Part shown: in pieces, positions 1 to 62,700 of the stretch | Layout of the letters: every line of letters starts with the position of its first letter | Position numbering within the stretch: the stretch's first letter is position 1 | NCBI GenBank assembly: GCA_030390025.1 | Contig: CM059431.1 | Coordinates: forward strand, 120,716,001 to 120,780,000 | DNA from: Squalus acanthias | Taxonomy: Eukaryota | DNA: 64,000 nt | Direction of reading: 5' to 3' | The notes under the pieces: model-generated | Databases searched by the model: none | What the model saw: only the letters and a program-made list of their open reading frames with translations | Told to the model about the DNA's origin: nothing | Made by a program: the position numbers and the translations under genes

Positions 1-1
1 G

Positions 2-1177
2 GAAATTATAGCAGAGTTGGAGAAACATGCAAAGACGGTAAATGCCCTGATTAGGGAAGATCGGAATGCATCCGATCAAGCTGCGCAGAACGAGGTGTGC
101 GTGCTTTACGGGGCGTGGTTACTGGGCGAGGGCCGCAGTAATTTGGAGGATTTAAAACAAGGTTTGGTTCCGTCCTGGATAAGTAACAAACACCTGCGGG
201 CGCTCCACCCTTTTCAGAACGCATTAAGTCCGTGCCAGCTCAGGCTAGCTTCAGAAGCATACCCAGTCCCCGTGGACTGCGGACGATCAAACCATACTAT
301 TATGGGAATAGTATTACGCATGCCGGTTTTGGGCGACACAGCAAAGCCCGCCCCGGTGTATCGGGTAGAGAACATTGGTGTCATTCAGGGGGGAGCCCAC
401 ATTCGTTATGCAGCGGTTCCACCTTACGTCATCCGCTGGGAGCAAACGATGACAGGTACAGATCTCTCTGGTTGTCGTGGCAGGGGAGCACACATAATAC
501 TGTGCCCCCAGCACTTGAATGCCTTTTTAACACCACAGTGCGGGTTCAGAACGACTGGCGCCAAGTCCATGAATTGCACCATGGAGGCAATGGCACAAGA
601 TCATGTGCCTCCGCAGGTAGCATACGTCGGGGGTGGAACATATTGTGTTACCACTGCAGCGCAACACTACCAGCATGGAAACCATAGCCGGTGTCCGGTG
701 AGTGACAGCAGTTTTTGTTTTAAACCCAGGGCGGAAGTTCAAGTAGCACAACAGCGAATTATCCCAATCCCTGAACCATCCACTGTTCATCTCACAGTAA
801 AAGAGAATTTCACCGACTTGCAGCGATTCGTCGCGCATTTTGGATACCTCATTCCCCCTCTCCCTGAACACCTCACCAAGCTTTTAAATGCCGTCGCGGT
901 ATCACAGAAACATTTTTACACATTAGAACAGAAAACTGTCGAAATAGGGACAGACATTCTGGATATAGTAGTTCCACCGTGGTGGAATCTGTTCACTAAT
1001 ATTGAAGTGCCTTCATGGATCAGAATAGCCTCCCACATTTTAGTCGTATGCCAAGTTTTCATTGTAGTGTACCTATTGGTCGTACATTGTAAAAGAGACA
1101 AGCGCCTCACCAAGCATGAAAACACGGGAGAGTGGCGAGAACGTTACGTGCGTGTGCACGATGAAAGCACCGTGTGA
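2..1177 (+). CDS. env: Envelope fusion glycoprotein, C-terminal part (cut by window edge), with intact TM anchor and cytoplasmic tail
   Basis: Open from the window start; near-identical to the copy 2 env; Cys-rich ectodomain with N-glycosylation sequons, hydrophobic IASHILVVCQVFIVVYLLVVHC, basic tail ending DESTV. Confidence 0.9.
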   Translation, partial: EIIAELEKHAKTVNALIREDRNASDQAAQNEVCVLYGAWLLGEGRSNLEDLKQGLVPSWISNKHLRALHPFQNALSPCQLRLASEAYPVPVDCGRSNHTIMGIVLRMPVLGDTAKPAPVYRVENIGVIQGGAHIRYAAVPPYVIRWEQTMTGTDLSGCRGRGAHIILCPQHLNAFLTPQCGFRTTGAKSMNCTMEAMAQDHVPPQVAYVGGGTYCVTTAAQHYQHGNHSRCPVSDSSFCFKPRAEVQVAQQRIIPIPEPSTVHLTVKENFTDLQRFVAHFGYLIPPLPEHLTKLLNAVAVSQKHFYTLEQKTVEIGTDILDIVVPPWWNLFTNIEVPSWIRIASHILVVCQVFIVVYLLVVHCKRDKRLTKHENTGEWRERYVRVHDESTV

Positions 1178-1628
1178 TCGGAAAATGGCGTCACTCCCGC
1201 TCGCCACGTGCGCCGCGGAAGTGTGTACTCGATCATGATTTTTCAGAGATTGTAAATACGTTGGGAACTCGACATGTTTTAAGAGTTGGTGTTGATTATT
1301 TTGGTGATGGTGTTACAGTTAAAAATGATTGTTTGGTTTTGGGTTTTGTTTTTCCTTTCCCTGAATAAAAGATGAATATACAGGTGATACGAGAGGCATC
1401 GGCCTGGTTACGCCGGGAAGGAAAACAAGTGGTGTAAGTTTAAGGGCAAATAATGCCTACGGTGATATAAAATGTAATTTTCTTGGGAAATAAGGACGAC
1501 ACAGAGACCCTAGCTAGGTTAAAATTATGGGATTAATTTGCTGGATTCGGAGAGAAATCGAGATAATATTGCTCACCACTATGATTTTTGATACGATAAG
1601 CGGAGTTATTCGCATCAACAGGAGGGAC

Positions 1629-3257
1629 TGTAGAATTCGCAATATATCGCGATTTTATTAATAAGGAGAAAACACAGAGTTTCGTTCAAACAGCTTTTAT
1701 TTCAGCAGAATGCTGCCAGGTTTAAAGTGGACACAAGCAGCCTGTAAAATGGCCGCCGCACCTCGTGACAGAACATTCTAGACTTTTCAACAGGCAGACA
1801 AGATGGCGTTCCAATAAACATTTGTGCAAGATCGATTAAGATTCAGCACAGTGAAGATAATACACGAGACATTATGGGTTTGCAGTATACACATAAATAC
1901 TGAAATCGGTCTCCCAGGTACAAATGAAAGCCATTGTACCGAGTAATCAAGGGCCCATCCAAATGACATTAATATGTAAAATCCCAACGACTCTACGATG
2001 AGAGAGCCGTTAACAGGTAGTTATACAAAACACTTGGAAGCCCCACAACCCCTCCAGGGAGAACACCGACCGATTTAACAATGGGAGAAATATTAACAGG
2101 TACTCAGACATTTACGAGTAGCCCCGAAACCCATTAAGAACGGAGATCACCCATACAAGACATTTGAGCGCCAGACCCTAAACAAAAGAATGGACATTAA
2201 GGTTGGGCGGGAAACGGAAGATTTTGCACTATAATTGCAGGCTCCAAACCGTCCATCTTTCTCTTATCCGATCGACTCGTAACCTCGTGGCTGCTCCTGT
2301 GTACTCGTAGTCGGGCTCCTGCTTGCCTGTTGACTCTTTGAAAAAGACTGTTGAACTTTCTGATCCGTTCGGATCTACCTCGTGTCGCGTAACGAAGACC
2401 TATGTTGGTAACTGGCAGCGGAACCAAAGGCCCGAGATGAGATGAGATGAGATGAGATGAGATGAGAAGAGAGGAAGACCATATCCATCGCCACGGTCAG
2501 TAAATCCCGACCGCGCCTGTAGGTCGAACAGCCAAGTTTTCCTTGCCAGGAAGACTTCTTCGAACTTGCAAAGAACATATCACATCGATGATATTGACAA
2601 CTGTGCTCGGAAAAGTACCTGTTAAACCAACCAACACAGGTCTTCATCACAGCAGACGGTCCAGCCTGCTAGCCGGAGCAGCAGAAGCAAGTAAACAAGT
2701 GGGACCAGGAGATCTCCTGACCGACACGTGGGTGCTGCGGTGAAAAACATCCGATCAGCTATTCGGAATTTCTCCGAGTTATCACGAGTGGTGAGCACGA
2801 GTCTCGAAATCCTACGAATCTAGTTAGGATAGATATTGATAGGGGAGGGTTTAAGGATTAAGGATATTTGTAATGTGTGCCCCTATTTACTGTGTGCCGT
2901 TCGTTCCTCGTTTCCCTAAGATCGACTATATAACTGCTTGTAAGATTGTACTGTCATTAATCTGTGCTTATGACATGTATTTCATAATCTTAAGTATCAT
3001 GCAATAAAGATTTTCCATTTCGTACCATTCAACCGAGTCTACATGAGTTTCATCTCCATTACTGCTCTCGCATCTAAGTCCAGTGTCTAGAACCGTAAGG
3101 GCGAGTGATTCGAACCACTCACAGGTGTGTCTAGTGTTCCCAGACTGGCTGGAGACCAGAACAGGCAACAAGGCCTAGACCCGCACTGACATACAGGCTG
3201 CACAGAGCCGCGTGAATCTCACAGGCTGCGAGACACGCAGGGTCAGAATCCCTTACA
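1629..3257 (+). repeat. 3' LTR of copy 1 (1629 bp)
   Basis: Starts TGTAGAATTCGC and ends CCCTTACA; homologous to 51681-53382 with indels; AATAAA at 3003-3008; (GAGAT)6 at 2434-2463. Confidence 0.93.
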
Positions 3258-51339: not shown

Positions 51340-51680
51340 GCAGCAATAACCTGTATTTATGTAGCAAATTTAACTTTAGAATACGTACTCAAGGTGCTGC
51401 ACCAGAGCATGATCAGACAAAAATTGAGAGAGCCAAAGAAGAAAATATTTTAATATTAATATTAAATATTAAAAGAAGTGACTCAAAATTAGGTCAAAGA
51501 GGTAGGTTTTAATGAGGGCTTTGAAGGGGGAGAAAGAGGTGGAGACAGAAAGATTTAGAGAGGGAATTCCAGAGTTTAGGGCCTAGATGGCTGAAGTCAC
51601 GGTCAGGAATGGTGGAGCAAAAGGAAGTGGGGCTTACATCACAGGCCAGAGTTGGAGGAACGCAGATGTCTTAGAGGATT
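51340..51680 (-). mobile_element. L2 LINE 3' part (left flank of the provirus)
   Basis: L2-type tail; sequence continues across the GATT TSD into 61171 onward. Confidence 0.65.
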
Positions 51681-53382
51681 TGTAGAATTCGCAATATATC
51701 ACGATTTTATTAATAAGGAGAAGAACACATAGTTTCGTTCAAACAGCTTTTATTTCAGCAGAATGCTGTCAGGTTTTCAAAGTGGACACAAGCAGCTTGT
51801 AAAATGGCCGCCACGCCTCGTGGCAGAACATTCTAGACTTTTCGACAGGCAGACAAGATGGCGTTCCAATAAACATTTGTGCAAGATCGATCAAGACTCA
51901 GCACATTTAAGATAATACACGAGACATCATGGGTTTACAGTATACACATAAATACTGAAATCGGTCTCCCAGGTGCGAATAAGGGCTATTGTACCAAGTA
52001 ATCAAGAACCCATCCAAAGACATTAATATGTAAAATCCCAACGACTCTACGATGAGAGAGCCGTTAGCGGGTAGTTACAGAAAACATTTGGAAGCCCCAA
52101 AACCCCTCCAGGGAGAACACCGACCGATTAAACAATGGGAAAAGTATTAACAGGTACTCAGACAGTTACGAGTATCCCCGAAACCCATTAAAACGAAGAT
52201 CACCCTATACAAGAAATTTGAGCGCCAAACCCTAACAAAAGAAAAGACATTAAGGTTGGGCGGGAAAAGGGAGGATTTTGCACTATAACTGCAAGCTCCA
52301 ACCGTCCATCTTTCTCTTATCCTCTTATTCGGTTGACGTTTATCCTCGTGGCTGCTCCTGTTGCTCTTATCCTTTCGACTCCTTGCCGCCTGCCTCGTGT
52401 CTCTGCCTCTTGCAGCTTTTAAAGACTGTTGAACTTTACGATCCGCTCGGATCTACCTCGTGGCGTGCCGCGAAGATCTGTGTGGAACTGGGCTCTGAAG
52501 CCTTGAAGCGGGCGCACCATCCCGAGAAGTCGGTAAACGGTGTTGGAACCGAAGGCCCGAGATGAGATGAGATGAGATGAGATGAGAAGAGAAGAAGACC
52601 ATACGTATCGCCACGGTCAGTAAGCTCCGACCGCGCCTGTAGGTCGAATAGACACTTTCCTTGCCAGGAAGACTTCTTCGAATTTTACAGAACTGCCAGG
52701 AAGACTATTCTTCGAATTTTATCGTATCCGTGCGAGGGCACAGGAAGACTCTTCTTTGAGCAGTGTCGGAACTCCGAGGACAACACAGATCTTCATGACA
52801 GCAGACGTTCCAGCCTGCTAGCCGGAGCAGAAACGAGTAAACAAGTGGGGTACAGAGACCCCTGATCGACACGTGGGTGCTGCGGTGAAAAACATCTGAT
52901 CAGAGTTTTCGGAATTCTCCGAGTTATCACGAGTGGTGAGCATGAGTCTCGATCCTACAAATCTAGCTTAGGGCAGATATTGATAGGGGAGGGTTTAAGT
53001 TTTAAGGATAATTGTAATGTGTGCCCCCATTTACGATGTGTCGTTCGTTCCTCGTTTCCCTGAAATTAGTTACATAACTGCGTGTAAGATTATACTGTCA
53101 TTAATCTGTGCTTATGACATGTATTTCGTAATCTTAAATAATATGCAATAAAGATTTTCCATTTCGTACCATTCAACCGAGTCTACCTGAGTTTTATCTC
53201 CATTACTGCTCTCGCATCTAAGTCCAGTGTCAGAACCGTAAGGGCGAGTGGGTCGAACCACTCACAGGTGTCTAGTGCTCCCAGACTGGCTGGAGACCAG
53301 AACAGGCAACAAGGCCTAAACCCGCACTAGCATCCAGGCTGCACAGAGCCACACGAATCTCACAGGTTCAGAAACCCTTACA
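51681..53382 (+). repeat. 5' LTR (1702 bp)
   Basis: TGTA...TACA termini; direct repeat of 59469-61170. Confidence 0.97.
52258..52288 (+). promoter_or_regulatory. Putative LTR core promoter (GC box plus TATA-like element)
   Basis: GGGCGG at 52258-52263 and TATAA at 52284-52288, conserved in all three LTRs; YY1-like AAAATGGCCGCC (51801) and CAAGATGGCG (51854) upstream. Confidence 0.5.
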
Positions 53383-53386
53383 GAAA

Positions 53387-55193
53387 ATGGCGACCGCGGC
53401 AGGACGCTGGCAGCGAGAGGGTAATGTGTTAGACTTTGGTATGAATGTACGAAATGTCATGCAAGAGAAAATAGCAGATTATGTGTTCGAAAAAGTAAAT
53501 TTGACTAAGAAATGGATAAGTGACCTGTTAGCGGATAAGAGTCCACTAGAGGCAGCCGAGAGGTGGACAGATAGTAAGGAACATAAAAAGACAGTCGAGA
53601 AAGCGGTCTGGTTAATGTGTTATAAAAGGCAGGTCCAGATTTCAAACCAGGTCATTACAGCGCAAACAGCTCGGATCAGGCATTTAGAGGAGGAAATGGA
53701 CGAGAAGGTCACTGGGGGGGGAGTTGCTCATTAGGAATTTAAGTGCGTTGCACCGAGAACGCCAGGAAATCACCAGTCACCATAAAGCAAAAATAGATTA
53801 CCTCAAGTGCCAGGTCACTGAGGCAAAGTTAAGTGAGGGCAGACTAAAGGAACGATGTGCCCGCCAAGCTGCCCAAATAAAAGCCCAGGAAGAGAGCTTA
53901 ACGGGGGTTAGGGCGGCATTTAAGATGGCCCTTGAGGATAAGTTTCAGGGGGCCGATCATAGCATTTGCCAAAAGGAGATAGAGCACCTTAAAAGGGCCG
54001 TGAACAAAGCGCACGGCATAGTGTGCCTTATCAGTCCGTCAGCACACCAGCCACTAGTAGATGAGGAGTTTCAGAAATTCCCACCCAATAAAGCAAAGGA
54101 AGTATTAGCCACTACGCCCTCCGCGCCACCCAGCTATTCGGAAACCTGGGTAAGGGAGGAAGTAGTAGAAGAAACGAAAGAGCCCACTGAGGGAGAAGTG
54201 GAAAAGGGACCGTTGTGTCCGGTTACGGGTATAAAAAGGGGCCCAAACAGAAACGGTGGGGAACAAGGAGATCTCCTCAACCAGCTTGTGTTGCCTCACA
54301 GCTCACACCAGCTGAGGGTTATGATAAGTCACGTACGGAAGCTGACCGAGGCAGACGACCCTTCCGTACATTTCAGGGAAGTTGAGCAAACCGCAGCCAT
54401 TAACGGCTGCGACGATGGGGAAACAGCAAAGATGCTGTTATTTTCATTAGGTAGTTCGATCCTTCAGTGTCTCTCGGACGAGAGCAAGAGAGGAACCAAA
54501 AAATATGAGGCACTAAAAAATGAGGTCCTAGAAGTATTGGGGACGGACGATGAAGGTCCGTTTGTTAGAGTGGGACAGACAGTGCAGATGGAGGGAGAAC
54601 CCCCGAAGGTTTTCGCCGACAGGCTGTGGCCAGTATACCAGCGCAGCTGCCCAGGTGCGCCAGAGCGCGACGATGTGGAAGGCGTCGGTTTAGCTCATTG
54701 GCTCAGGTGTATAGTAGCCAACAGTTTGCCAGCCGTCAGAGAGCAGGCAAAAGCGTGGTTTGATCCCACTGACCCCAACATTACGGAGGAGTCGGTCTTA
54801 AATCGACTCACGGTAGGATACCGCAATATAAGGGGTATGGGAACACGTCCCCTTAAAGGAAAAGTACATGAGGTACGACCCGCAGCCCCGGCTCAAAAGG
54901 AGTGGCATCAGGAGGGTAACCGCGCCCCGCAGGCAAGTAATGCTTATTACGGGTGTGGGAGGACAGGGCACTGGCGCAAGAACTGCAGGAACCCTTGGAA
55001 GGATTCCAGGGATAAAAATCCCGCAGCCCGAGCCCAGATGCCTGTCTCTGTTAGGGAAGCTAGTGCACCCACCCCTCCCGACGACCTCGAAACAGTGTTG
55101 GGAGCCATGCGCAACTTCATGAGTGCGCATGGAAAAGTGGCGGTTGCTACCGGCCCCGTAGGTGCCACAGGCCCGTCTAACAATACCCAATGA
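53387..55193 (+). CDS. gag: Gag-like polyprotein (~600 aa if one G is removed from the G8 run at 53714-53721)
   Basis: ORFs 53387-53734 and 53724-55193 join on a 1-nt deletion; N-terminal coiled coil, PSAPPSY late domain, helical capsid-like region, zinc knuckle YYGCGRTGHWRKNC with the first Cys replaced by Tyr. Confidence 0.85.
53388..53405 (+). promoter_or_regulatory. Primer-binding site, tRNA-Arg (TCG/CCG type)
   Basis: TGGCGACCGCGGCAGGAC is the reverse complement of the vertebrate tRNA-Arg 3' end GTCCTGCCGCGGTCGCCA as recalled; it starts 5 nt after the LTR. Confidence 0.88.
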
Positions 55194-56339
55194 CTAGAGC
55201 CCACGCAGCCTGCCTACCTGTGTCCTTTTAAAAGACACGCACAGGAGGGGGTCTCCTGTGAGGAGGCCAGGTTAAAAGAGCAGGCCTTGCGGGAGGAGAA
55301 CGCCCGCTTAATAGGGAAAATAGATGGGCTAGAAGGGCAGCTTAGAGAGCAGGCCCTGCGGGAGGAGAACGCCCGCTTAATGGGAAAGTTAGACGTGCTC
55401 AGGCTAGAAGGGCAGCTTAGAGAAATAAAAGCAGCCTACCAGGTAGCCAGAAGCAGGGATTTAAATCAGTGCAAACTGTACAAGCCAGGTGCACAAGGGA
55501 AAACCACAGGGGCAAACCCTGCGAGTGGGGACTCGCAGCCCCAGGTAGGACCACAGGGCACACAGGCAGGAAGAGCAGCTTGCATCAGGGAAGGAGGCAT
55601 CCTGGAAAATTGTGAAACATTTTTGTGGGGTTGGGAGTCAGATGAGGGAGAGTTCCCGGAACTCGAGTCAGATGAGGATAGTGATGAGGACGAGTGGGAA
55701 TCGGGGAACGCAAGGGTCGCCCCCGATTCAGGTATAGGGAGGACAGGAGCTGCAGATAGAGATCCACACAGGGTGGACACCGAGGCTGCAGGTCCCGAAC
55801 ACAGGAGGGAGGAGCTAGGGGAGGCGGAGCCAGCCGCTGTGGGACCACAGGGCGTGACGGTGAAAACCTCAGAGCCCGAGCCGCCCGCCTTGAACGTCCT
55901 GCCCTCGAGAGAGGTAGGGATTGCGAGTGAAGGGCCGCCTGCTGGGCCGAGCAGGGCGGTGCCACAAGCTGCAAGTCCCGAGGTCAGGGAGGCGGAGTCA
56001 GGGGAGGCGGAGCCAGCGACTGTGGTGGGACCACAGGTCGTCCCGGTGGAAGTCTCGGAACCCGGTCCGTCGGTCCTGGGATTCCTGCCCCCGACAACTC
56101 CTCGTAGGTCAAGTCGAGCACCCCAGCCCAGGAAGATGTGGTCATGTCCCCAGACTGCCCCAAGGCGCAGGCTTAAGGTTAAGGCAGCCCAGGTAGGGCC
56201 CAGTCCCATCGCAGCAGCAACAGGCTGCGGCAGATCAAAGGAAGGGGTCAGTGCAGCAACAGGCTGCGGCAGATCAAAGGAAGGGGTCAGTGCCCTCCCA
56301 CCATCGGGAAGAACTCGCAGCAGCCTTCTCAGAATTTAA
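55194..56339 (+). CDS. ORF-X: in-frame readthrough extension of gag at the pol position, unknown function (~381 aa)
   Basis: No stop between the gag TGA and TAA 56337-56339; starts LEPTQPAYLCPF; no D(T/S)GA, YxDD, HHCC or DDE motifs seen. Confidence 0.75.
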   Translation, partial: LEPTQPAYLCPFKRHAQEGVSCEEARLKEQALREENARLIGKIDGLEGQLREQALREENARLMGKLDVLRLEGQLREIKAAYQVARSRDLNQCKLYKPGAQGKTTGANPASGDSQPQVGPQGTQAGRAACIREGGILENCETFLWGWESDEGEFPELESDEDSDEDEWESGNARVAPDSGIGRTGAADRDPHRVDTEAAGPEHRREELGEAEPAAVGPQGVTVKTSEPEPPALNVLPSREVGIASEGPPAGPSRAVPQAASPEVREAESGEAEPATVVGPQVVPVEVSEPGPSVLGFLPPTTPRRSSRAPQPRKMWSCPQTAPRRRLKVKAAQVGPSPIAAATGCGRSKEGVSAATGCGRSKEGVSALPPSGRTRSSLLRI

Positions 56340-56632
56340 AGGGGCCGCCCTGAGAACGGGCGGCGCTGTACAGTAATAAGTTTAGGATAAGTTTTAAGGT
56401 CATAGTTTAAGTTTACGTTTCTAAGTTTAAGGTTAAGAATAAGGTTAAGAATAAGTTTATAGTTTTAAAATCGGTTTAAGTTTGTAGTTTAATTTTAACA
56501 GAATATGATAAAATGATGGGAGTTTTAGATAGGTTTAGTTAAAGTTTATTCAGCGAACATGGAAGTTTCCGTGAGGCGAGGTCAGGGGACCCGCTCACCC
56601 TTTACAAAAGCCAGAGACTCTTGCGAGGCTGG

Positions 56633-56656
56633 CTAACTCATTCTATCTGATCACAG
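56633..56656 (+). promoter_or_regulatory. Putative env splice acceptor (branch point plus CAG)
   Basis: CTAAC-TCATTCTATCTGAT-CACAG, 13 nt upstream of the env ATG at 56670. Confidence 0.65.
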
Positions 56657-56669
56657 GAACCAAGGAAGG

Positions 56670-59020
56670 ATGGAACGAATTCTAGTATTGCTCGCGGCAA
56701 TCGGATGTGGGTTGGCCTATCGAGGCCGCACCAAGGATGTCGTGGTGTTTGGATGCTCCGGGGACACGGCCCCCATCGCGGTGGATGGGACCGGAAGACG
56801 GGAGGCTGAGGAGACCACCACCTATTTCCACAAGGGAAGGTGGCCAGGATGGCTGGGAACGAACTCAACGGAGTATTCCAGCACATCGGGGTTTGCCTAC
56901 CAAGAGACTTCTTTAATGTGCCCCAAAGTAAGGATCATCGCACCCAGGATCAGCGTCACCGTCGGCAAACGGATTTGTTTGACTTGTAATGGGAATGTCC
57001 CATTGAGCCGATGGTGGTGGCTGCGAAAGCTGAGCAAAAACATGAGGAACTCTTCGGTCGAGTGGGAACGACTGGGTAATAATACCCATCGGACAATTAC
57101 GGGGACAAACGGACAAGTGAGAGTCTGTTGGGACAAATGGTGGGAACCGGATGAGGGAATTTATGTACGCATGTGGGGGTCAAAGTACGCGTGCCCCAAA
57201 GGCATCTCCATATTTTTCATTAATCAATGGCAGGATAACGGACAGGGAATGAGGTGGGATGCGAGCACCAGGGGGTGCGGAGCCCCATACTCTTCGATCC
57301 CGGTAAATGCCACTGAACTCATTACGCGCCCACGCAAAGCCCCGCCCACGATTCCGGTGGTTCTAGCTAAAGAGGAAGGGTGCCCTAAAACCAGTAAGGG
57401 ACCCGGGAATGGTTTGGTACTGGTCCCCACAGACCAGATACTATTTCAGGGGGTACATTACGCGGTGGCCTCGGTGGTTTTAAATCTCACCGAGGTGCGG
57501 TTACCAGAGTGGCGCCCCAAAAAGACGGAACAGTTGTATCAGGTCCTGTTGACCAAGATGTTCAGACAATTTTACGAATTCGATTTCGCGGTAATTGATA
57601 AAACAAGTTTGTACACCGCACCACATGAAGTTTTGGATCAATTAGGGAGGCAAAGAAGGGGTGTAGTGAACGACGCGTTCACTGCTTTTAACACGGGTAC
57701 ATCTGTGGTCAACGCTCTAGATAGTGTGGAGCTGCAGACCCAGATTAATGGTTTAAAGACGCAATTAAAAGACATTCTAACAGATGAAAATAAAGTGGTT
57801 GGGTCGGGTTTACATGAGGACCAAGCCATGACTCTCCATTTAAAGGAAATTATAGCAGAGCTGGAGAAACACGCGAGAACGGTAAATGCCCTGATTAGGG
57901 AAGATCGGAATGCATCCGATCAAGCTGCGCAGAATGAGGTGTGCGTGCTTTACGGGGCGTGGTTACTGGGCGAGGGCCGCAGTAATTTGGAGGATTTAAA
58001 ACAAGGTTTGGTCCCGTCCTGGATAAGTAACAAACACCTGCGGGCGCTCCACCCTTTTCAGAACGCATTAAGCCCGTGCCAGCTCAGGCTAGCTTCAGAA
58101 GCATACCCAGTCCCCGTGGACTGCGGACGATCAAACCATACTATCATGGGTATAGTACTACGTATGCCGGTTTTGGGCGACACAGCAAAGCCCGCCCCGG
58201 TGTATCGGGTAGAGAACATTGGTGTCATTCAGGGGGGAGCCCACATTCGCTATGCAGCGGTTCCACCCTACGTCATCCGCTGGGAGCAAACGATGACAGG
58301 TACAGATCTCTCTGGTTGTCGTGGCAGGGGAGCACACATAATACTGTGTCCCCAGCACTTGAATGCCTTTTTAACACCACAGTGCGGGTTCAGAACGGCT
58401 GGCGCCAAGTCCATGAATTGCACCATGGAGGCAATGGCACAAGATCATGTGCCTCCGCAGGTAGCATACATCGGGGGTGGAACATATTGTGTTACCACTG
58501 CAGCGCAACACTACCAGCATGGAAACCGTAGCCGGTGTCCGGTGAGTGACAGCAGTTTCTGTTTCAAACCCAGGGCGGAAGTTCAAGTAGCACAACAGCG
58601 AATTGTCCCAATCCCTGAACCATCCACTGTTCATCTAACAGTAAAAGAGAATTTCACCGACTTGCAGCGATTCGTCGCGCATTTCGGATACATCATTCCC
58701 CCTCTCCCTGAACACCTCACCAAGCTTTTGAAAGCCATCGCGGTGTCACAAAAACATTTTTACACACTAGAGCAGAAAACTGTCGAAATAGGGACAGACA
58801 TTCTGGATATAGTAATTCCACCGTGGTGGAATCTGTTCACCAATATGAAGTGCCTTCATGGATCAGAATAGCCTCCCACATTTTAGTCGTATGCCAAGTT
58901 TTTATTGTAGTGTACCTATTGGTCGTACATTGTAAGAGAGGCAAACGCCTCACCAAGCACGAAAACACGGGAGAGTGGCGAGAACGTTACGTGCGCGTGC
59001 ACGATGAAAGCACCGTGTAA
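56670..59020 (+). CDS. env: Envelope glycoprotein (class I fusion type), frameshifted near 58846 before the TM anchor
   Basis: Signal peptide MERILVLLAAIGCGLA, Ig-like segment, furin site RQRR at 57648-57659, fusion peptide and heptad repeat; AATATGAA here versus AATATTGAA in copy 1. Confidence 0.9.
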
Positions 59021-59459
59021 TCGTAAAATGGCGTCACTCCCGCTTGCCACCTGCGCCGCGGAAGTGTTGTACTCGACCGTGATTTTTCGAAAACTGTAAA
59101 TACGTTTGGAACTCGACATGTTTTAGGAGTTGGTGTTGATTATTTTGGTGATGGTGTTGTAGTTAAAGATGATTGTTTGGTTTTGTTTTGCTTTTCCTTT
59201 CCCTAAATAAAAATATGAATATACAGGTGATACGAGAGGCATCGGCCTGGTTAAGCCTGGAAGGAAAACAAGTGGTGTAAGTTTAAAGGCAAATAATGCC
59301 GACGGTGCTATAAAATGTAATTTTCTTGGGAAATAAGGACGACACAAAAACCCTAGATAGTTTAAGTTATGGGATTAATTTTCTGGATCTGGAGAAATCA
59401 AGATAATATTGCTCACCACTATACTTTTTGATACGATAAGCGGAGTTATTCGCATCAAC

Positions 59460-59468
59460 AGGAGGGAC
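59460..59468 (+). promoter_or_regulatory. Short polypurine tract
   Basis: AGGAGGGAC directly before the 3' LTR; identical at 1620-1628. Confidence 0.8.
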
Positions 59469-61170
59469 TGTAGAATTCGCAATATATCACGATTTTATTA
59501 ATAAGGAGAAGAACACATAGTTTCGTTCAAACAGCTTTTATTTCAGCAGAATGCTGTCAGGTTTTCAAAGTGGACACAAGCAGCTTGTAAAATGGCCGCC
59601 ACGCCTCGTGGCAGAACATTCTAGACTTTTCGACAGGCAGACAAGATGGCGTTCCAATAAACATTTGTGCAAGATCGATCAAGACTCAGCACATTTAAGA
59701 TAATACACGAGACATCATGGGTTTACAGTATACACATAAATACTGAAATCGGTCTCCCAGGTGCGAATAAGGGCTATTGTACCAAGTAATCAAGAACCCA
59801 TCCAAAGACATTAATATGTAAAATCCCAACGACTCTATGATGAGAGAGCCGTTAGCGGGTAGTTACAGAAAACATTTGGAAGCCCCAAAACCCCTCCAGG
59901 GAGAACACCGACCGATTAAACAATGGGAAAAGTATTAACAGGTACTCAGACAGTTACGAGTATCCCCGAAACCCATTAAAACGAAGATCACCCTATACAA
60001 GAAATTTGAGCGCCAAACCCTAACAAAAGAAAAGACATTAAGGTTGGGCGGGAAAAGGGAGGATTTTGCACTATAACTGCAAGCTCCAACCGTCCATCTT
60101 TCTCTTATCCTCTTATTCGGTTGACGTTTATCCTCGTGGCTGCTCCTGTTGCTCTTATCCTTTCGACTCCTTGCCGCCTGCCTCGTGTCTCTGCCTCTTG
60201 CAGCTTTTAAAGACTGTTGAACTTTACGATCCGCTCGGATCTACCTCGTGGCGTGCCGCGAAGATCTGTGTGGAACTGGGCTCTGAAGCCTTGAAGCGGG
60301 CGCACCATCCCGAGAAGTCGGTAAACGGTGTTGGAACCGAAGGCCCGAGATGAGATGAGATGAGATGAGATGAGAAGAGAAGAAGACCATACGTATCGCC
60401 ACGGTCAGTAAGCTCCGACCGCGCCTGTAGGTCAAATAGACACTTTCCTTGCCAGGAAGACTTCTTCGAATTTTACAGAACTGCCAGGAAGACTATTCTT
60501 CGAATTTTATCGTATCCGTGCGAGGGCACAGGAAGACTCTTCTTTGAGCAGTGTCGGAACTCCGAGGACAACACAGATCTTCATGACAGCAGACGTTCCA
60601 GCCTGCTAGCCGGAGCAGAAACGAGTAAACAAGTGGGGTACAGAGACCCCTGATCGACACGTGGGTGCTGCGGTGAAAAACATCTGATCAGAGTTTTCGG
60701 AATTCTCCGAGTTATCACGAGTGGTGAGCATGAGTCTCGATCCTACAAATCTAGCTTAGGGCAGATATTGATAGGGGAGGGTTTAAGTTTTAAGGATAAT
60801 TGTAATGTGTGCCCCCATTTACGATGTGTCGTTCGTTCCTCGTTTCCCTGAAATTAGTTACATAACTGCGTGTAAGATTATACTGTCATTAATCTGTGCT
60901 TATGACATGTATTTCGTAATCTTAAATAATATGCAATAAAGATTTTCCATTTCGTACCATTCAACCGAGTCTACCTGAGTTTTATCTCCATTACTGCTCT
61001 CGCATCTAAGTCCAGTGTCAGAACCGTAAGGGCGAGTGGGTCGAACCACTCACAGGTGTCTAGTGCTCCCAGACTGGCTGGAGACCAGAACAGGCAACAA
61101 GGCCTAAACCCGCACTAGCATCCAGGCTGCACAGAGCCACACGAATCTCACAGGTTCAGAAACCCTTATA
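59469..61170 (+). repeat. 3' LTR (1702 bp; terminal CA changed to TA)
   Basis: Direct repeat of the 5' LTR with three differences seen by eye. Confidence 0.97.
60935..60940 (+). terminator. LTR polyadenylation signal
   Basis: AATAAA conserved in all three LTRs (3003, 53147, 60935), about 230-250 nt from the LTR end. Confidence 0.65.
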
Positions 61171-62700
61171 GATTTTAGAGCTGGAGGAGGTTAAGATAGG
61201 GAGGGGTGAGGCCATGGAGGGATTTGAACACAAGGATGAGAATTTTTAAATTGACGCAATGCTGGACCGGGAGTTAATGTAGGTCAGTGAGCACAAGGGT
61301 TGATAGGTGAATGGGACTTGTTGCGGGTTAGCATATGGGCAGAAAAGTTTAGGATGAGCTCAAGTTTAAGGAGTGTGGTAGATGGGAGACCAGCCAGGAG
61401 AGTATTAGAATTGGCTGGAGGTAACAAAAGCATTGATGAGGGTTTCATCAGCAGAGCAGTTGAAACAGTGGTGGATGATGGGTGGTGGTATGGAGGCAGA
61501 TGTAGGCGGTCTTTGTGATGAAGAGAATATGGTGTCAGAAGTTCAGCTCAGTGTCAAATAGGACACCGTAGTTGTGAGCAGTCTGAGATAGTGGGATAGT
61601 GCTCCACACGCACAGTCACATAGGCTGTAATTTGTGGCTTTGATTAGCATCGTTCCAATGCTGTGGTAAGAGTGGAAACCTGATTGGAGAGATTCAAACA
61701 TGGAGTTGCAGGAAAGATGGTCATGTATTTGGGAGCTGACAACACATTTGAGGACTTGAGAGAAAAGGGAGTTTGGACATACGGTGACAGAAGGGTCAAG
61801 GGTTTTTTTTGAAGAGGGGAATGCTGATGGCAGATTTGAAAGGGAGGTGACAATAACTGAGGAGAAGGAACCATTTACTAGGTCAGCTAGCACGTGGGGC
61901 CAGGAAGTGAAGTTGGGTGGTCAGCTGTTTAGTGGAAAAAGGGGCGAGAGAGCAGAAGAGGGCATGAGTGGAGATAAGAAAGAAACTAGAGATAGATGCT
62001 AGTTCAGGAATAGGGCAGGGGGGGAATCTTTGGGAAAGCTTGGCTTGGTGGGCACGGGAAAGGGATGGATGAAGCAGAGGCAGTTGAATAGATGGTCTCA
62101 ATTATAGTGGCAAAAAAGTTCATGAGCTCCTCGCATTTGTTGTTGGAGGTGAATGTGGAGGGGGCAGGGGAGAGTGGTTAAAGGAGATGGTTGATAGTGA
62201 AGAGAAGCCAGTGGTTATCTTTGCATTCTAGGCTGATCCTGGAGTAGTGAACATTTCTGGCAGAGGAGAGCAGCACCCAGTGGTGCTTGATGCGATCAAG
62301 CCAGATCTGGCAATGAATGACAAAACCAATGTGCCATATATGTTCAAGTCTGTGCTCCTTAGACGTAAGGGAGCAAAGATGATGGCCGTACCAGGGGGAA
62401 TGACCAGGGTGGGAGAGAGGAAATGTTTCACTGGGATCAAGGGCATCAAAGGTGGAAGTGATGGAGTGATTGAGCAGATCAACACCTGCAGATATATTGT
62501 GAGGAACAGAGGGCTAAAGGCTAGACAATTAGAAGTTTTAAAGAGAGTGGCAAGATTAGCACCCAGCACGTGCTCTGGGTGGAAAGGTCAGCAGGTGAGG
62601 AGGATGGCAGTTGGAGTTGCTGCTCGTAAGGAGGCAGCGACAAGTGCCTCGATGGATAAATGCAAGTCAGAGGACGTCATGACCAAACTGTTCAGTTCTG
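61171..62700 (-). mobile_element. Degenerate L2 LINE (right flank of the provirus)
   Basis: NSMFESLQSGFHSYHS resembles the L2 QSGFR..HSTETAL motif. Confidence 0.7.

Follow-up and report, generated by a model that had tools for sequence, protein, structure and literature searches.

Ig-fold domains on retroviral envelope proteins (Env) are of a known kind, since immunoglobulin (Ig) receptor-binding domains (RBDs) have been reported on gamma-type and alpha-like Env (Hotzel 2024, bioRxiv 2024.03.17.585361). In the available text of that preprint, gamma-type RBDs have a modified IgV-like fold and have moved between lineages, and the alpha-like Env-Dbi has an IgV RBD derived from SIRP and captured from a host gene. 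Other described Envs are built around F-type fusion proteins, including the F-like Envs of lokiretroviruses (Wang and Han 2020, PMC7947760, as far as its text was available) and the F proteins of Ty3/gypsy errantiviruses, for which the main text of an invertebrate survey describes four conserved domains (Chary and Hayashi, bioRxiv 2023.10.26.564294). Here, we describe a long terminal repeat (LTR) element of Squalus acanthias whose Env probably joins an Ig-type domain to a predicted F-type fusion module. The element spans positions 51681-61170 of the window, by which we mean the whole 64,000-nucleotide stretch analysed (contig CM059431.1, 120,716,001 to 120,780,000, assembly GCA_030390025.1), and its env is one + strand open reading frame (ORF) at 56670-58871 (733 amino acids).

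An earlier, sequence-only reading had proposed an Ig-like domain in the surface subunit of this Env from three motifs, all of which were confirmed at their places within the env ORF: ISVTVGKRICLTC (56949-56987, Env residues 94-106), WWWLR (57012-57026, residues 115-119) and DEGIYVR (57150-57170, residues 161-167), each on the + strand. We place the Ig-like (V/I-set-type) domain at 56919-57233 (+), Env residues ~84-188, which is the span of the structural alignments; the earlier reading had ended it at 57180, short of the predicted G strand. The domain has its B-strand cysteine at residue 106, its C-strand tryptophan at 117, DxGxY at 161-165, and additional conserved cysteines at residues 103, 153 and 175. 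The pattern C-x(8-20)-W-x(35-75)-DxGxY, set post hoc with the sequence already known, was found in 70 of 10,000 shuffles of Env residues 17-250, and occurs once among all ORFs of at least 100 amino acids in the window (13,376 amino acids), at the Env site. Cys106, Trp117, Gly163 and Tyr165 are kept in all six sequences that span the whole domain, and the second cysteine in five of them. The complete set of B-strand Cys, C-strand Trp and DxGxYxC at canonical spacing is therefore present in 5/6, the window copy lacking the second cysteine; this count admits two sequences that each depart by a single conservative D/E exchange; in P0012, for instance, the D of the motif is E. Compared with relative P0007, 60 of 104 positions agree in the Ig domain, 37 of 68 in the segment preceding it and 24 of 55 in the linker that follows, so that conservation of the Ig domain equals that of the pre-Ig segment and exceeds that of the linker.

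Several kinds of comparison favour an Ig-type fold, in agreement with the earlier proposal. Ig_3 was the sole Pfam family to match the window region (E 0.067, 14.1 bits), and it matched pieces of relatives at E 3.9e-4 and 0.033, with further pieces at 1.3e-3 and 0.11. A profile built from six sequences gave eight matches in PDB, seven of them CRTAM or CD8 alpha V domains aligned over Env residues ~79-178, with B-Cys, C-Trp and DxGxYxC in register and strand spacing as in the window head; at E 0.3-0.7, this likeness is no evidence of a donor. Atlas features of the region fall in V/I-set clusters at 0.88-0.91. All 47 best Foldseek rows are, judged by title, chain and length, apparently antibody V-domain chains (probability up to 1.0), and by title 44 of the best 50 rows of a wide VIA search belong to the Ig superfamily, with four unclear and two C2-domain entries. 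A single-sequence AlphaFold model was poor (predicted local distance difference test 46.8), and in Foldseek it recovered mainly antibody and CD8 chains, at E 0.08-0.3. A fold search of BFVD returned nothing below E 0.001, profile A2 had no matches in PDB, and the whole Env used as a single sequence had no useful match in Pfam or PDB. An Ig-type fold is probably the best reading of Env residues 84-188, and the one with which the sequence comparisons and models are consistent.

Some of these results weigh against that reading. No sequence reached the curated Ig_3 cut-off of 30 bits, the best being 21.3 bits in relatives; indeed every score is sub-threshold, the structure models are of low confidence, and the domain departs from type in its additional cysteines and WDKWW segment. 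One could then propose that the region is a viral beta domain rich in Trp and Cys, whose resemblance to Ig is due to convergence or to motifs arising by chance. We consider this improbable, given that five different methods indicate Ig and no other family, that relatives retaining the second cysteine score better, and that UniRef independently labels a related shark Env "Ig-like domain-containing protein".

Downstream of the Ig-type domain, the region from residue 238 (57381-58845, +) has a Cys-rich body and is predicted to be a class I fusion module of the F type, like those of paramyxoviruses and baculoviruses. The Atlas places Env residues 235-725 near the PF00523 and PF12259 clusters, at 0.94 with Baculo_F and 0.93 with Fusion_gly clusters, sharing 199-206 features, with a Baculo_F cluster as the best, and one relative matches Baculo_F at E 1.1e-3. 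Two negative results count against the assignment: hidden Markov models of Baculo_F or Fusion_gly (PF00523) matched none of 22 aligned family members, and the family profile recovered no F protein from PDB. Detectable similarity to PF00523 is one criterion for a lokiretrovirus Env.

Related Envs carry different N-terminal heads. Close relatives are from Rhinoraja and Pristiophorus; 29 of the best 50 full-library profile matches were looked up, among them 20 from sharks, three from frogs and one from the coelacanth. We aligned relatives on the first cysteine of the fusion module to compare heads. Type A is the head of the window lineage. Type B, in Chiloscyllium P0017, matches Ig_3 and Ig_2 at E 0.12 (UniRef "Ig-like domain-containing"); type C, in two frogs, is Ig-like by eye and without a Pfam match; and type D, in P0037, matches V-set at E 1.6e-3. 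Shark Envs P0016, P0028 and P0032, which belong to the clade adjoining the window lineage, have an unrelated, Cys-rich head of ~120 amino acids without a Pfam match, and P0040 and the coelacanth P0047 have no head. In a midpoint-rooted tree of F modules (14 rows, short fragments among the 50 matches omitted, no outgroup, two long branches), the V-set-headed P0037 and the headless P0040 are sisters (support 95/96); type A and the Cys-rich type form a group whose support, 91/90, falls short of the starred level. Since heads differ in type across related F modules, as in the sisters P0037 and P0040, the slot has changed more than once; as read from these sequences, head exchange across the family rests on few of them.

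In a further observation on this family, frog Envs P0022 and P0052 are more alike in their heads (32% identity, z 34) than in their F modules (26.5%), and the P0022 F module is nearer to that of P0037 (36.7%), whose head differs; head exchange is a possible reading. A Mantella Env cluster has 16 members, with 12 of the 15 listed at 677 amino acids. The shark gene models P0005, P0012, P0015 and P0050 fuse Env pieces to Niban-1-like, zinc-finger, cadherin-like and fbxo15 genes; these are probably annotation chimeras, with exonisation as an alternative. No longer fused Env forms were found, which is weak evidence, and tblastn confirmed no locus in metagenome or viral contigs and none in phages.

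The sequence-only reading had taken the domain to be captured from the host. A host donor was not recovered by protein or profile searches of limited length range and sensitivity: with E values up to 1 allowed, Env residues 17-250 had no match among host proteins of 30-402 amino acids, and the best 50 full-library profile matches included no host protein aligned to the Ig segment. An ancient origin of the head from Ig-superfamily genes of a host is plausible. Going further, we tentatively suggest a hitherto undescribed vertebrate lineage of F-type Env in sharks, skates, coelacanth and frogs, apart from the published lokiretrovirus Envs, in which the N-terminal slot may have been filled repeatedly from different host Ig-superfamily domains to give one-protein attach-and-fuse machines from a type of fusogen that otherwise depends on a second protein for attachment. 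A different history, which we regard as possible but short of probable, is a single gain of an Ig head in the ancestor of the vertebrate F-type Env clade, followed by divergence, replacement or loss; it is compatible with a role in attachment. Ig-like heads occur to either side of the midpoint root, which would fit such a gain, as would a faint likeness between the window and Chiloscyllium heads (z 5.6 and 2.8 versus shuffles; hhalign 21 versus a shuffle maximum of 18.4). The hhalign probabilities between head types are nevertheless 7% or less, the Ig profile of the close family fails to detect the other head types although F modules across the family align at 19-37% identity, and, by eye, the P0037 head is alone among the heads in having neither the B-strand nor the F-strand cysteine.

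Paramyxoviruses carry out attachment with a separate protein, and in the Squalus element no ORF for a second glycoprotein is present. This absence, together with the position of the Ig-type domain, its conservation, the turnover of the slot and the precedent of gamma-type Env, leads us to favour, on balance, the view that the domain is a built-in cell-attachment head on the predicted F-type Env of a young, pol-less LTR element. Cleavage at the furin-type site RQRR (57648-57659, +, residues 327-330) would leave the Ig domain on the N-terminal (F2-side) subunit, where it could be displayed on the trimer and bind a cell-surface ligand, and the F-type core would then perform fusion. An exchangeable attachment module would be expected to vary as this slot does, which holds one of four Ig-like types that cannot be aligned with each other, a Cys-rich head or nothing. 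The main rival reading accepts the Ig fold as genuine but, instead of an entry head, sees in it an immune decoy, modulator or shield that binds a host immune receptor or covers the core of the fusion machinery. Its best sequence look-alikes are V domains of immune cells (CRTAM, CD8a), weak matches in the BFVD search include herpesvirus Ig-family membrane proteins, four N-glycosylation sequons lie within Env residues 17-237, and the head is dispensable in P0040, P0047 and 22/22 published lokiretrovirus Envs with an N-terminus. We nonetheless think this role unlikely, as the CRTAM/CD8a and herpesvirus likenesses are non-significant and reflect library make-up, and the domain at the same position in gamma-type Env is the receptor-binding domain.

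The window copy itself has an arginine at F-strand position 167, where relatives have cysteine. The suggestion of the earlier reading that this change is specific to the copy was supported: the position is Cys in all five relative proteins covering residue 167, and all contig depth reads Cys in four of four sequencing runs (three organisms; 5, 4, 7 and 1 contigs). Contigs from sequencing runs lose rare variants, so that further Arg copies could escape detection; the arginine is very likely private to the window copy. Other private changes relative to sibling contigs are a frame split in gag, a frame break in env near 58845 and a second cysteine position near 57513. The env break puts the transmembrane tail (env end, 58846-59020, +) out of frame, and the copy is likely defective, so that its value lies in the family. 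The tail is in frame in copy 1 alone, the 3' end of a sibling element at 1-3234 (+), which comprises the C-terminal half of env with the transmembrane tail and then an LTR and is 94% identical to the window copy over its first 2.3 kb. Because the window opens within this sibling env, copy 1 has Env only from residue 393 onward and so lacks the Ig region. In the fusion module, the one part compared, the two copies differ at 23 synonymous and 11 non-synonymous codons; a count of synonymous versus non-synonymous sites over 27 of 40 listed variants (56 further) was uninformative and was not used.

The remaining parts of the element are on the + strand. The 5' LTR (51681-53382, 1702 bp) and the 3' LTR (59469-61170) are flanked by a 4-bp target-site duplication (51677-51680 and 61171-61174). 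The identity of the LTRs at 1701 of 1704 aligned bases (three differences), their TG...CA ends and the duplication indicate a very young insertion. A gag-like region (53387-55193) is split over two frames near 53688-53734 and encodes a degenerate zinc knuckle (Pfam zf-CCHC E 0.019; HIV nucleocapsid E ~1). The gag ATG (53387-53400) overlaps a TGG-starting sequence resembling a primer-binding site just 3' of the 5' LTR, and the gag stop TGA is followed by CTAG (55191-55197), which we take to be a readthrough-type context, in frame with ORF2. This 381-residue frame (55194-56339) sits at the usual place of pol and is not pol; it has a repeated, coiled-coil-like start (55261-55423), an acidic, Pro-rich remainder and a 39-bp duplication (56214-56293). 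Nothing in the element matched the pol remnants of relatives. Env itself opens with a predicted signal peptide (56670-56717, residues ~1-16, from hydropathy, with the cleavage site inferred) and a conserved pre-Ig segment with an invariant Cys (56718-56918, residues 17-83), and a linker rich in Pro and Thr (57234-57380), which holds an N-glycosylation sequon and a conserved Cys at residue 203, separates the Ig-type domain from the fusion module. Elsewhere in the window lie two inverted pairs of interspersed repeats (5798-7689/45303-47213 and 21976-22611/35258-36115; 77-93% identity).

Among described systems, lokiretroviruses share several features with this element: they are LTR elements of a vertebrate host range rich in non-amniotes, their Env, which is F-like as is predicted here, has a signal peptide, a basic site for cleavage, a coiled coil and a transmembrane segment, and, by eye, the fusion modules open with the same GPxxG motif. 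Gag and env lie between the LTRs in both, and some lokiretroviruses have an extra smc-like ORF. In lokiretrovirus Env, however, the leader runs straight to GPxxG with no added domain (by eye, 22/22 with an N-terminus; a 23rd is a fragment; PMC7947760), the cleavage site is RXKR rather than RQRR, and the segment 3' of it is unlike that of the window Env by eye. Two defining traits of lokiretroviruses, a reverse transcriptase phylogeny sister to retroviruses and a pol that includes both a tether and a second RNase H, do not apply to a pol-less element. The Ty3/gypsy errantiviruses share the furin site and LTR retroelement context and have an F-type ectodomain like the one predicted here, and the main text of the errantivirus survey has no "immunoglobulin", "Ig-like" or "Ig domain". 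Related gene models have no more of pol than degraded pieces; those beside related shark Envs match RNase_H PF00075 and, weakly, the RNase H of murine leukaemia virus, which points away from gypsy. A recently active, Env-bearing retroelement family is flagged in cartilaginous fish, where the lokiretrovirus survey lists none in three chondrichthyan genomes (PMC7947760 supplement).

We found no paper on an Ig head on an F-type Env (bioRxiv supplements, subscription journals and Repbase lay outside the search). The consulted portions of PMC11089739, PMC12440569 and PMC13709493 hold nothing on the window Ig domain, and the available text of bioRxiv 2024.03.17.585361 does not mention shark, fish, lokiretrovirus or paramyxovirus. 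The earlier statement that Ig domains are not standard in retroviral Env thus holds for F-type Env as far as searched and fails for gamma-type RBDs and one alpha-like Env with IgV-like folds. The probable Ig head on a predicted F-type Env is the new part, and the exchange of heads across the family is of more interest than a single Ig domain: four Ig-like heads, one Cys-rich head and none on homologous fusion cores would form a natural series in which to ask how binding couples to fusion. As in gamma-type RBD-C and Env-Dbi, the Ig-fold domain of the window Env would lie at the N-terminus of the surface subunit. The two cases differ in that the SIRP donor of Env-Dbi is detectable by BLAST, whereas that of the window head was not found, and in that the RBDs of the preprint sit on gamma/alpha-type Env with surface and transmembrane subunits. 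If our reading is true, RBD capture would no longer be confined to the gamma/alpha-type retroviral Envs in which it has been described to date, and would extend to F-type fusogens.
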